Of a stretch of DNA of 64,000 nucleotides, positions 23,611 through 49,747 are shown in pieces (position 1 is the stretch's first letter; every line of letters begins with the position of its first letter). This DNA is from a virus: IMG/VR virus record IMGVR_UViG_3300027702_000001. One strand, given 5' to 3'. The translations under genes were made by a program, and so were the position numbers. The notes beneath the pieces are model-generated. The model saw only the letters and a list, made by a program, of their open reading frames with translations, made no database searches and was not told the DNA's origin.

Positions 23611-23695
23611 CGGAAAAGGTGGGATTCGAACCCACGGATGCCTTCACATCGCTGGTTTTCAAGACCAGTGCCATCAACCACTCGACCACTTTTCC
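23611..23695 (-). tRNA. tRNA-Ser(TGA)
   Basis: GGAAAAG acceptor stem, CTGGT CT-TGA-AA ACCAG anticodon arm, long variable arm, GGTTCGAATCC T-loop; no encoded CCA. Confidence 0.92.
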
Positions 23696-29304: not shown

Positions 29305-29395
29305 ATGAGTGCAGGGAAACACTAATAAGATATTCCTTCGCCACCCTCAGGCGGAGGTATTAGAGACGTAATTTATACTCCCTATAGGTCTCGGT
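29305..29395 (-). ncRNA. Structured psbA leader, probably the PhotoRC-II motif
   Basis: GAGAC...GTCTC stem enclosing TATAAAT, followed by CCTCCGCC/GGTGGCG..GG pairing; family name recalled, not searched. Confidence 0.55.
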
Positions 29396-29451
29396 TGGAG
29401 GGGAGTAGTAGTTGTAGAATTGTTTACATTCCGTAACATTCAACACTATGT

Positions 29452-32096: not shown

Positions 32097-32170
32097 CGGG
32101 TCAGGCAGGATTCGAACCTGCGACCGACTGCTTAGAAGGCAGTTGCACTAATCCACTGTGCTACTGACCC
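32097..32170 (-). tRNA. tRNA-Arg(TCT)
   Basis: GGGTCAG acceptor stem, ACTGC CT-TCT-AA GCAGT anticodon arm, GGTTCGAATCC T-loop. Confidence 0.92.
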
Positions 32171-33935: not shown

Positions 33936-33962
33936 TAAAAAAACACCCTTGAAAAGGGTGTG
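33936..33962 (-). terminator. Terminator of the riboswitch operon
   Basis: CACCCTT TTC AAGGGTG plus 7 T. Confidence 0.75.
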
Positions 33963-33974
33963 CGTTTCACGAAG

Positions 33975-34133
33975 TTATTTGACCGAAGTGTTTTGATTGA
34001 ATGACAAGTTTAACTTTACCCATTTGGCATAGTACACTCCCCGATAGCAAAGAAAGGCGAATACCTTTTCGGGGTTGTGCTTCTCCTCGTCATACTCTGG
34101 CAACCCATAATCTATTGAGATCTTGAGTCGCAC
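33975..34133 (-). CDS. YRG-motif microprotein (DUF4278-like), 52 aa, GTG start
   Basis: Hand translation MRLKISIDYGLPEYDEEKHNPEKVFAFLCYRGVYYAKWVKLNLSFNQNTSVK. Confidence 0.55.
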   Translation of the reverse strand: MRLKISIDYGLPEYDEEKHNPEKVFAFLCYRGVYYAKWVKLNLSFNQNTSVK

Positions 34134-34137
34134 GGTC

Positions 34138-34245
34138 CTAACCCCACTGGTGCAAGAATTTTACTTCTGCATAGATTAAGGTTAGGAACGTGGCAGACCC
34201 CAATGTTATGAGTCCCACCACCATTATCGGCGATGATAGATCCAT
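34138..34245 (-). CDS. 35-aa single-TM microprotein
   Basis: Hand translation MDLSSPIMVVGLITLGSATFLTLIYAEVKFLHQWG. Confidence 0.5.
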   Translation of the reverse strand: MDLSSPIMVVGLITLGSATFLTLIYAEVKFLHQWG

Positions 34246-34246
34246 C

Positions 34247-34390
34247 TTAACTCTTTGATGCGAACTTGCGTTCAACTTTGATGCCTCTGTACATCAACTC
34301 GTAGTTACGGTTTGATGATGCTTCGGCAAGTACCTTTGCTTTGTACTCTTTTGCGTTATACTTAACGCCTCTGTAAGTGATTAGTTCCAT
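34247..34390 (-). CDS. DUF4278-like microprotein (47 aa)
   Basis: MELITYRGVKYNAKEYKAKVLAEASSNRNYELMYRGIKVERKFASKS; two YRG motifs; AGGAG SD. Confidence 0.75.
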   Translation of the reverse strand: MELITYRGVKYNAKEYKAKVLAEASSNRNYELMYRGIKVERKFASKS

Positions 34391-34424
34391 TGAATTACTC
34401 CTAAAGTAGTTGGATTTTTAGGTC

Positions 34425-34671
34425 CGTTCCTTTAGTCGTTTGCGTCCCACGGACATTGAGGAGTTGCCTCCTTAATGGTTTGAACGATCTCAACCTTTAC
34501 CTGTTCAGATAATTGTTCGTGCTTAGCGACTCTACCTAACAGTACAGCAGCATCTACACAATGGAGATCTGAATACGCTAAAAGCATTAGATGCATTAAC
34601 ATAATTTTGGTCCAAACATAGGGATGAACGCTCCGTTCCGCGACTTACTTGCGTCTCTTGCGAGATGAACG
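34425..34671 (-). ncRNA. Tandem glutamine riboswitch-like aptamers (glutamine-II/downstream-peptide type)
   Basis: Aptamer 1 CGTTC-A-TCTC(GCAA)GAGA-CGCA-loop-GAACG; aptamer 2 CGTTC-A-TCCC[insert]GGGA-CGCA-loop-GAACG; directly upstream of the DUF4278-like gene. Confidence 0.75.
34432..34602 (-). CDS. 56-aa ORF nested inside aptamer 2
   Basis: Hand translation MLMHLMLLAYSDLHCVDAAVLLGRVAKHEQLSEQVKVEIVQTIKEATPQCPWDAND. Confidence 0.6.
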   Translation of the reverse strand: MLMHLMLLAYSDLHCVDAAVLLGRVAKHEQLSEQVKVEIVQTIKEATPQCPWDAND

Positions 34672-34697
34672 TATGGATATGATAACATATCCTGTAT

Positions 34698-34704
34698 TAT
34701 TTAG
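34698..34704 (-). promoter_or_regulatory. Late promoter variant (CTAAATA) upstream of the aptamers
   Basis: CTAAATA followed by perfect hairpin GGATATG TTAT CATATCC. Confidence 0.55.
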
Positions 34705-34758
34705 CAATGTTTTTCTTTTTGTAACGTTTCCTTTTGGTACGGTACTGTTGCTGAGTTC

Positions 34759-49528: not shown

Positions 49529-49553
49529 AGACCTGATTATGTGTGGTGTGTGA

Positions 49554-49718
49554 GGGAGGTTGGATTACTGTGTACCAACAAAAGATGGGCATTACTACAG
49601 AGTAAATACATCTTTGCCTAAGACCCGATTGGTAAATCGATTCTACTTTCGTAGCAGCACCACCTGTGTCTTATCACCTTAACCAGCAATATGCCAGTAA
49701 GTTTATTCAGTCACTCCC
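49554..49718 (-). ncRNA. Large structured RNA, probably the manA motif
   Basis: GGGAG/CTCCC closing stem; internal helices TAAGAC/GTCTTA, CTAC-GAAA-GTAG, CGATT/AATCG, AAAGATG/CATCTTT, GTTGG/CCAAC; no ORF; family name recalled, not searched. Confidence 0.65.
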
Positions 49719-49747
49719 AGTAAAAGAAGCGTCCCTCTCTTACAAAT

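Follow-up and report, generated by a model that had tools for sequence, protein, structure and literature searches.

Does the leader of a small-ORF operon in a cyanophage carry two glutamine-sensing RNA cores, and if so, how are they folded together and which gene do they serve? The locus lies on the minus strand of what we call the window, the whole 64-kb stretch of T4-like cyanomyophage DNA that was analysed, between a 2OG-Fe(II) oxygenase-like ORF and talC. The window also encodes nrdB, two tRNAs (32097-32170 and 23611-23695), a manA RNA (49549-49742, minus strand, 179 bits) and a PhotoRC-II RNA (29322-29417, minus strand, 74 bits). A sequence-only reading had described the locus as two glutamine-II-like aptamers in tandem, with loops that kiss each other in competition with sequestration of the Shine-Dalgarno (SD) sequence of a DUF4278-like gene. 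Type-2 glutamine riboswitches occur in marine picocyanobacteria, which are the hosts, ahead of short DUF4278 ORFs (PMC6698751). In what follows, A1 and A2 denote the first and second CGUUCA, B1 and B2 the first and second GGAACGG, L1 the AGUCG loop of unit 1 and L2 the CGACU loop of unit 2. S2 is the stem CURAAG:CUUYAG, which reads CUAAAG:CUUUAG in the window. ORF1 is the enclosed 56-codon ORF, ORF2 the DUF4278 gene and ORF0 an extra upstream ORF of some relatives. The features of the window are as follows.

34679..34707, minus strand: sigma-70-like promoter TTGCTA-17-TGnTATCAT; predicted RNA start about 1 nt before the first CGUUCA
34666..34671, minus strand: A1, CGUUCA, 5' strand of the aptamer P1/pseudoknot helix; invariant in relatives
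34654..34665, minus strand: core 1 hairpin UCUC-GCAA-GAGA; three of its four pairs covary in compact relatives
34646..34653, minus strand: core 1 linking strand CGC plus AAGUA (junction); aligns with CGGAAGUA of Rfam Glutamine
34641..34645, minus strand: L1, AGUCG, one strand of the inter-core helix (P3 in the outer fold); covaries with L2
34633..34639, minus strand: B1, GGAACGG, 3' helix strand of core 1; pairs with A2
34621..34630, minus strand: A2, the second CGUUCA plus a UCCC tail; provides the 5' strand of core 2 and abuts the ancestral start codon of ORF1
34596..34619, minus strand: window-specific uORF of seven codons, MFGPKLC; starts at the ancestral ATG right after CGUUCAUCCC
34432..34602, minus strand: ORF1, 56 aa, T4-GC 430, phrog_504; inside the core 2 stem
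34441..34448, minus strand: GGGA plus linking strand CGCA of core 2; GGGA is the 3' strand of the stem closing ORF1, and the segment overlaps the ORF1 codons Trp-Asp-Ala
34434..34438, minus strand: L2, CGACU, partner of L1; consists of the last base of an Asn codon, a full Asp codon and the U that opens the stop codon
34430..34435, minus strand: first S2 strand, CUAAAG, including the ORF1 stop UAA; its CU is also part of L2 and its G part of B2
34424..34430, minus strand: B2, GGAACGG, distal 3' helix strand; invariant, the partner of A1 according to RNAalifold and the Rfam type-1 model
34412..34425, minus strand: possible small hairpin GGA..UCC within the S2 loop, to which G-C, G-U and A-U variants lend slight support
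34398..34406, minus strand: second S2 strand, CUUUAG, overlapping the ORF2 SD AGGAG; its third pair covaries with the stop codon
34247..34390, minus strand: ORF2, 47 aa, DUF4278-like (IF17-like), phrog_5049
33943..33961, minus strand: terminator-like hairpin with U tract; closes a run of four small ORFs

Relatives of the ORF0 class carry TTGACT..TATAAT at the same distance from CGTTCA as the promoter of the window. ORF2 is most likely the gene under the control of the element. It matches Pfam DUF4278 (PF14105) with 24.1 bits (E 4.8e-5), below the gathering score of 25.3, and RefSeq gives the DUF4278 annotation to its homologues in P-TIM40 and S-SSM5. Two further small ORFs lie between ORF2 and the terminator (33975-34275, minus strand), one encoding a 45-aa hydrophobic peptide of no family and the other a 52-aa protein with the motif YRGVYY (phrog_6192, E 7e-24).

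The locus was found by blastn in 429 phage records. In fifteen loci from different genera, unit 1 always stood directly upstream of a 53-61-aa ORF (T4-GC 430), followed by a DUF4278-type ORF, and it scored 20-31 bits at this same place in all 15. Pattern scans of IMG/VR brought the total to 205 distinct parsed cyanophage loci, for which counts do not represent independent events, as the sequences are related and some loci were gathered with patterns that fix certain motif bases. Among these, a compact class of 37 loci (31 distinct sequences) has an ordinary hairpin in place of ORF1.

Two cores of the glutamine-riboswitch type are indeed present. The half-motif ACGCA-N6-14-GGAACGG occurs exactly twice in the 64-kb window, where shuffled sequences lead one to expect 0.01 copies, and the pocket bases CGUUC, CGC and GGAACGG vary little or not at all among the 205 loci. 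This conservation holds in compact loci, which lack ORF1 and hence its coding constraint. The CGC linking strand and the long-range C:G pair that it forms with the G after GGAAC, a type-2 trait, are found in both units (paired in 31/31 and 30/31 of the compact relatives), and the CGC of unit 2 is kept in 199 of the 205 loci. Six loci (L138, L141, L156, L175, L176 and L196) have CGAA or CGGA instead of CGCA as the second linking strand; core 2 thereby loses its long-range C:G pair, and in some lineages the inner core may thus be degenerate.

Together with Rfam scores below threshold and a stop codon inside S2 that suits coupling, these few loci would be in line with a loss of glutamine sensing, the helices serving only translational coupling of the small ORFs or mRNA stability. 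We regard such a loss as very improbable, since the pocket bases of all 205 loci, including compact loci without ORF1, are invariant or nearly so.

Unit 1 was laid out in the window just as the sequence-only reading had it, with CGTTCA (34671-34666), a hairpin (34665-34654), CGCA (34653-34650), AGTCG and GGAACGG. For unit 2, the 3' half was borne out (CGCA, CGACT, CTAAAG and GGAACGG are present), while the proposed 5' strand, CGTTCA at 34486-34481, was not. This hexamer is part of Ile-Val-Gln codons and is followed by AACC, which is unable to close a stem with GGGA; among the 162 ORF-containing relatives it is found in the window only, the others reading GTTGA or ATTGA. A local aptamer 2 spanning 34488-34421 can thus claim the presence of the hexamer and an Rfam match of 15.9 bits (E 1.7), and against it stand a strand seen in 1/162 relatives, the missing closing stem and the codon explanation, so that we give it next to no credence. 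The boundaries of aptamer 2 had accordingly been misplaced: comparison of relatives identifies the second CGUUCAUCCC, at 34630-34621 on the minus strand, as the conserved 5' partner, and the 56-codon ORF lies in the stem. From the plain hairpin that compact loci have at this position, it follows that A2 forms the 5' side of core 2, with ORF1 being cargo in its stem.

Judged by its sequence conservation, the cargo is a real gene. ORF1 is open in 160 of the 162 ORF-class loci, where the 157 distinct proteins all retain C, R, E and C residues and the motif WDA-D, and it matches phrog_504 (E 1e-18) in an alignment that begins only at ORF1 residue 5. Relatives start ORF1 at the ancestral ATG. Relative to other phages, the window seems to have gained about 26 nt here, and the UAA of the uORF overlaps the in-frame ORF1 AUG (UAAUG).

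A second gene can occupy core 1. The local 5' strand and hairpin of core 1 are missing in 54 of the 205 loci, 34 of which have a confirmed in-frame ORF0 preceded by CGTTCA. In this class (L006, L024, L094 and about 45 other loci), an ORF0 of about 66 aa (..GWHMSCERFLQ..KSKVEGQC..) replaces the core 1 hairpin. In the 34 loci, the sequence just ahead of the ORF0 ATG covaries with the ORF0 stop codon, as UCUU/UAA, UCUC/UGA and UCC/UAG. ORF0 and ORF1 are, from their profile comparison, probable paralogues (hhalign probability 89.6%, E 1.9e-6), and an aptamer core with its nested gene may therefore have duplicated as a whole unit. Another small ORF, ending in ..SIRRWKNSL* and helix-turn-helix-like, lies between the core 1 GGAACGG and the second CGUUCA in L059, L077, L099 and L110, so that B1 and A2 pair at long range instead of as a local hairpin; the inserted ORF may be mobile.

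The pairing of the two loops, AGTCG with CGACT, was upheld by strong covariation. Across the 205 loci we counted AGUCG:CGACU 109 times, AGUCA:UGACU 55 times and AAUCG:CGAUU 17 times, along with the rarer pairs GAUCG:CGAUU (7), AGUCU:AGACU (3) and AUUCG:CGAAU (3). This amounts to four Watson-Crick pair types at two positions with a true mismatch in at most 4 loci, and every variant pair was found in several architecture classes. Variation at L1 positions 3 and 4, which face the fixed GA of the Asp codon, was found in 0 contigs of IMG/VR. The single outlier to the loop-loop rule is L011 (Synechococcus phage S-SSM7), in which both linkers contain GCCGAC, ORF1 ends in WDANAD and the AGUCG:CGACU complementarity is not evident.

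Two more helices covary around A2. The B1:A2 hairpin is GAACG:CGUUC in 197 loci, CAACG:CGUUG in 8 and mixed in 0, with a variable loop (GAG, GAGC, GAU, GUUC and others). The tail of A2 is paired to the tetranucleotide that precedes the second CGCA, as UCCC:GGGA in 147 loci, UCCU:AGGA in 15, UCUC:GAGA in 5, UUCU:AGAA in 4 and others, which gives six Watson-Crick types for the stem that closes ORF1.

How do these helices combine into one fold? Matches of the window to both Rfam glutamine models were seen, and all of them fell below the gathering scores: unit 1 reaches 24.9 bits with Glutamine (RF01739, type 1; gathering score 35) and 24.7 bits with Glutamine-II (RF01704, type 2; gathering score 33). 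Glutamine-II scores of the relatives range from 20.1 to 29.5 bits, all below 33. In contrast, the compact relative L199 scores 46.2 bits with the type-1 model (gathering score 35), which aligns it from A1 to B2 and takes L1:L2 as P3. Unguided RNAalifold on the 31 compact sequences yields one nested fold with A1:B2, both hairpins, L1:L2 and B1:A2. On the compact alignment, the nested structure has 99.2% of cells paired and 8 pairs changed on both sides, and 0/500 shuffles were as good; an alternative structure containing S2 fits the same alignment at 98.5%. In single-sequence folding, the MFE of the window has a z-score of -2.29, and the MFE structures of three compact relatives (two with A1:B1 plus S2, one nested) are not decisive.

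Compared with the type-1 class, whose example is the Synechocystis gifB/IF17 leader (PMC6212724), the phage element shares CGUUCA, a hairpin, CG-AAGUA, P3 and RAAGGAACG. The hairpin of core 1 follows CGUUCA directly, with a sequence and length that vary highly among relatives. P3 of type 1 lies between CGxAAGUA and GAAGGAACG, where the phage has L1:L2, which in the window encloses about 195 nt. The strands of P1, CGUUC:GAACG, which in type 1 closes a three-way junction, are present and invariant, and thus without covariation; both RNAalifold and the covariance model choose A1:B2 for them. The gifB leader is also alike in standing upstream of a DUF4278 gene and in having, beside the 3' strand, a helix that is able to cover the ribosome site. 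The phage RNA differs in that its P3 is without a capping loop and bears a second core and, in the window, the 56-codon gene, and in that, as in type 2, C-G replaces the long-range G-C; the type-1 model misses the window.

With the type-2 class (RF01704, PMC6698751), the element has CGUUCA, P1, CGCA and GGAACGG in common, and a pair of the C19:G41 type is possible. Unlike type 2, it has no local 8-bp P2: neither unit has a local P2 flanking GGAACGG, and P2 comes from the other unit. A local 3-bp P2 for unit 1, CGC:GCG, was rejected as it is broken without compensation in the GUCAC and in the AGC or AU loop variants. The A33:G42 pair at the interface of pseudoknot and P2, 99.5% conserved in type 2 (PMC6698751), is lacking in unit 1, which reads C-GGAACGG-A. 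Unit 2 has an A before GG, with A at position 42 in the window and G there in 151 of 205 relatives. S2 has P2 topology for unit 2 and covaries, yet it carries a 17-nt insert.

These comparisons bear on the possibility of two ordinary tandem type-2 aptamers, in which A1:B1 would act on ORF1 and A2:B2 on ORF2, with L1:L2 as a shared P2 and B1:A2 as a ligand-free anti-aptamer. Such an arrangement would account for the common order of both units (CGUUCA, hairpin, CGCA, linker, strand, GGAACGG), the CGC kept in each, the canonical P2 topology of S2 in unit 2 and the MFE choice of A1:B1 plus S2 in two compact relatives. As A1 and B2 are invariant, covariation does not separate A1:B2 from A1:B1 and A2:B2, and what favours A1:B2 by covariation is only the 8 loci with doubly compensated B1/A2. 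In these, CAACG:CGUUG is combined with canonical A1 and B2, so that A1:B2 and B1:A2 are perfect, while A1:B1 and A2:B2 are each mismatched by C-C and G-G. Together with the preference of RNAalifold and the Rfam type-1 model for A1:B2 and the lack in unit 1 of the type-2-defining A33:G42 pair, this makes two ordinary tandem aptamers unlikely.

We therefore favour, as a structural model, a nested and interlocked fold over two independent kissing aptamers, because the B1:A2 hairpin covaries and the RNAalifold and Rfam type-1 alignments agree; the helix described as kissing would then be P3. In the nested fold, A1:B2 would form P1 and L1:L2 would form P3, and the core 1 hairpin, the UCCC:GGGA stem, L1:L2 and B1:A2 would all be compatible with each other. 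It would thus correspond to a type-1 glutamine riboswitch whose P3 bears at its tip a gene and a second core in permuted order. The strands might also be swapped, with A1:B1 and A2:B2 giving two type-2-like aptamers that share L1:L2.

The proposed pairing of CTAAAG with CTTTAG beside the SD is a real helix, S2. Its third pair, in CURAAG:CUUYAG, is A-U in 105 loci, G-C in 67, G-U in 23 and A-C in 0, and tracks the ORF1 stop codon, TAA occurring with U and TGA with C or U (Fisher p 9e-33). In the window, CTTTAG lies at 34406-01, the SD AGGAG at 34402-34398 and the ORF2 ATG at 34390 (all minus strand), and S2 reaches only the first two bases of AGGAG. Since S2 shares CU with L2 and G with GGAACGG, S2 and the aptamer fold compete. 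Hence, of the suggestion that loop kissing competes with SD sequestration, the competition stood, through the two shared nucleotides, and the side-by-side independent aptamers did not. All helix energies lie between -4 and -7 kcal/mol, and such weak helices would fit a balanced switch.

Based on these findings, we consider it likely that the leader of this phage operon is a composite glutamine riboswitch, made of two copies of the core in a nested fold with S2 as the competing stem, and acting as an ON switch. When glutamine is low or absent, S2 would form and hinder ribosome access to the DUF4278/IF17-like gene. When glutamine is present, the aptamer fold would take up CU, RAAG and GGAACG, S2 would be barred and ORF2 would be translated. 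The ON direction from glutamine to ORF2 is presumed by analogy with the host, where glutamine riboswitches ahead of DUF4278 genes are ON switches (PMC6212724); the type-2 structure paper likewise proposes that ligand binding frees an occluded ribosome site (PMC6698751).

The direction is uncertain because a further pairing, CCUAAA:UUUAGG (-3.5 kcal/mol, in this lineage), could mask the SD again after S2 opens. The CCTAAA just 3' of unit 2 (34422-17, minus strand), to which the sequence-only reading had drawn attention, is there in the window, whereas as a conserved element it fails, being lineage-specific and lost in TGA-type loci. If CCUAAA or UCC captured the freed UUUAGG, glutamine would lower ORF2 translation or leave it unchanged. 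In keeping with this, the CCUAAA pairing appears in the MFE structure of compact L199 alongside the nested fold, and in the RNAalifold structure the GGA within the SD is paired to UCC. However, CCUAAA is missing or mismatched in TGA-type loci, where the partner reads UUCAGG, its pairing has no covariation support, and the host riboswitches cited above are ON switches, so that an OFF or neutral switch seems rather improbable to us.

In the composite ON switch, translation of ORF1 would intervene as well. Because the start and stop codons of ORF1 abut the closing stem, its translation and the folding of the RNA must compete; ribosomes on ORF1 must melt the closing stem, L2 and S2, and ORF1 translation thus competes with sensing. 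Ribosome passage could thereby reset the sensor and couple ORF1 to ORF2. We speculate, with somewhat less than even confidence, that the element as a whole is a strand-swapping two-site glutamine sensor with stems that enclose translated genes, in which partner exchange would give a sharp response, ribosome passage through ORF1 would reset the sensor and open the SD of the IF17-like gene, and the phage would time a glutamine-synthetase-directed factor by host nitrogen status.

Other RNAs offer partial parallels. Tandem riboswitches, such as glycine riboswitches and the tandem glnA RNAs noted earlier (PMC2864571), likewise have two physically linked sensor cores per leader and one expression platform; in contrast to these, the phage cores are interlocked by Watson-Crick helices, can swap strands and have an ORF between them. 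Homing-endonuclease ORFs sit in the loops of group I introns. There too, a protein gene occupies a peripheral loop of an RNA with a functional fold, whereas in the phage the RNA that harbours the gene is a riboswitch belonging to the same mRNA, and the start and stop codons adjoin the closing stem. The inter-core junction GGAACGG-CGTTCA gave no tandem in a sample of 401 cyanobacterial genomes, where its 17 matches were about as many as those of a reversed-pattern control, and a scan of genome contigs was dominated by chance, with no real tandem among the matches listed (at least 120).

Phage matches to glutamine riboswitches have already been published (PMC9964418, PMC9004378). One of them, a 99-nt 'glnA' match in S-CREM1 (44 bits; PMC9964418, Table 4), is much longer than the 53-position model and might represent this composite element, with the match running through both cores. 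A full-text literature search found no paper that describes two cores interlocked in this way or genes lying within the stems. On comparative grounds, the element thus appears to be a variant of a known riboswitch class in a layout for which we found no published description.

Riboswitches are normally compact 5'-UTR elements; in this one, a stem surrounds an entire gene, and the first sensor core has a second one built into it. The arrangement is found widely among cyanomyophages of both marine and fresh waters and is missed by Rfam thresholds, and covariance models of glutamine riboswitches must permit very long insertions, because such elements otherwise go unannotated. The locus would also provide a natural test case for the interplay of translation and ligand sensing on one RNA. 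The small protein whose translation the two cores probably control together resembles an inhibitor of glutamine synthetase. Given the resemblance of the controlled gene to the glutamine-synthetase inactivating factor of the host, the finding would bear on how phages read the nitrogen status of the cells they infect.
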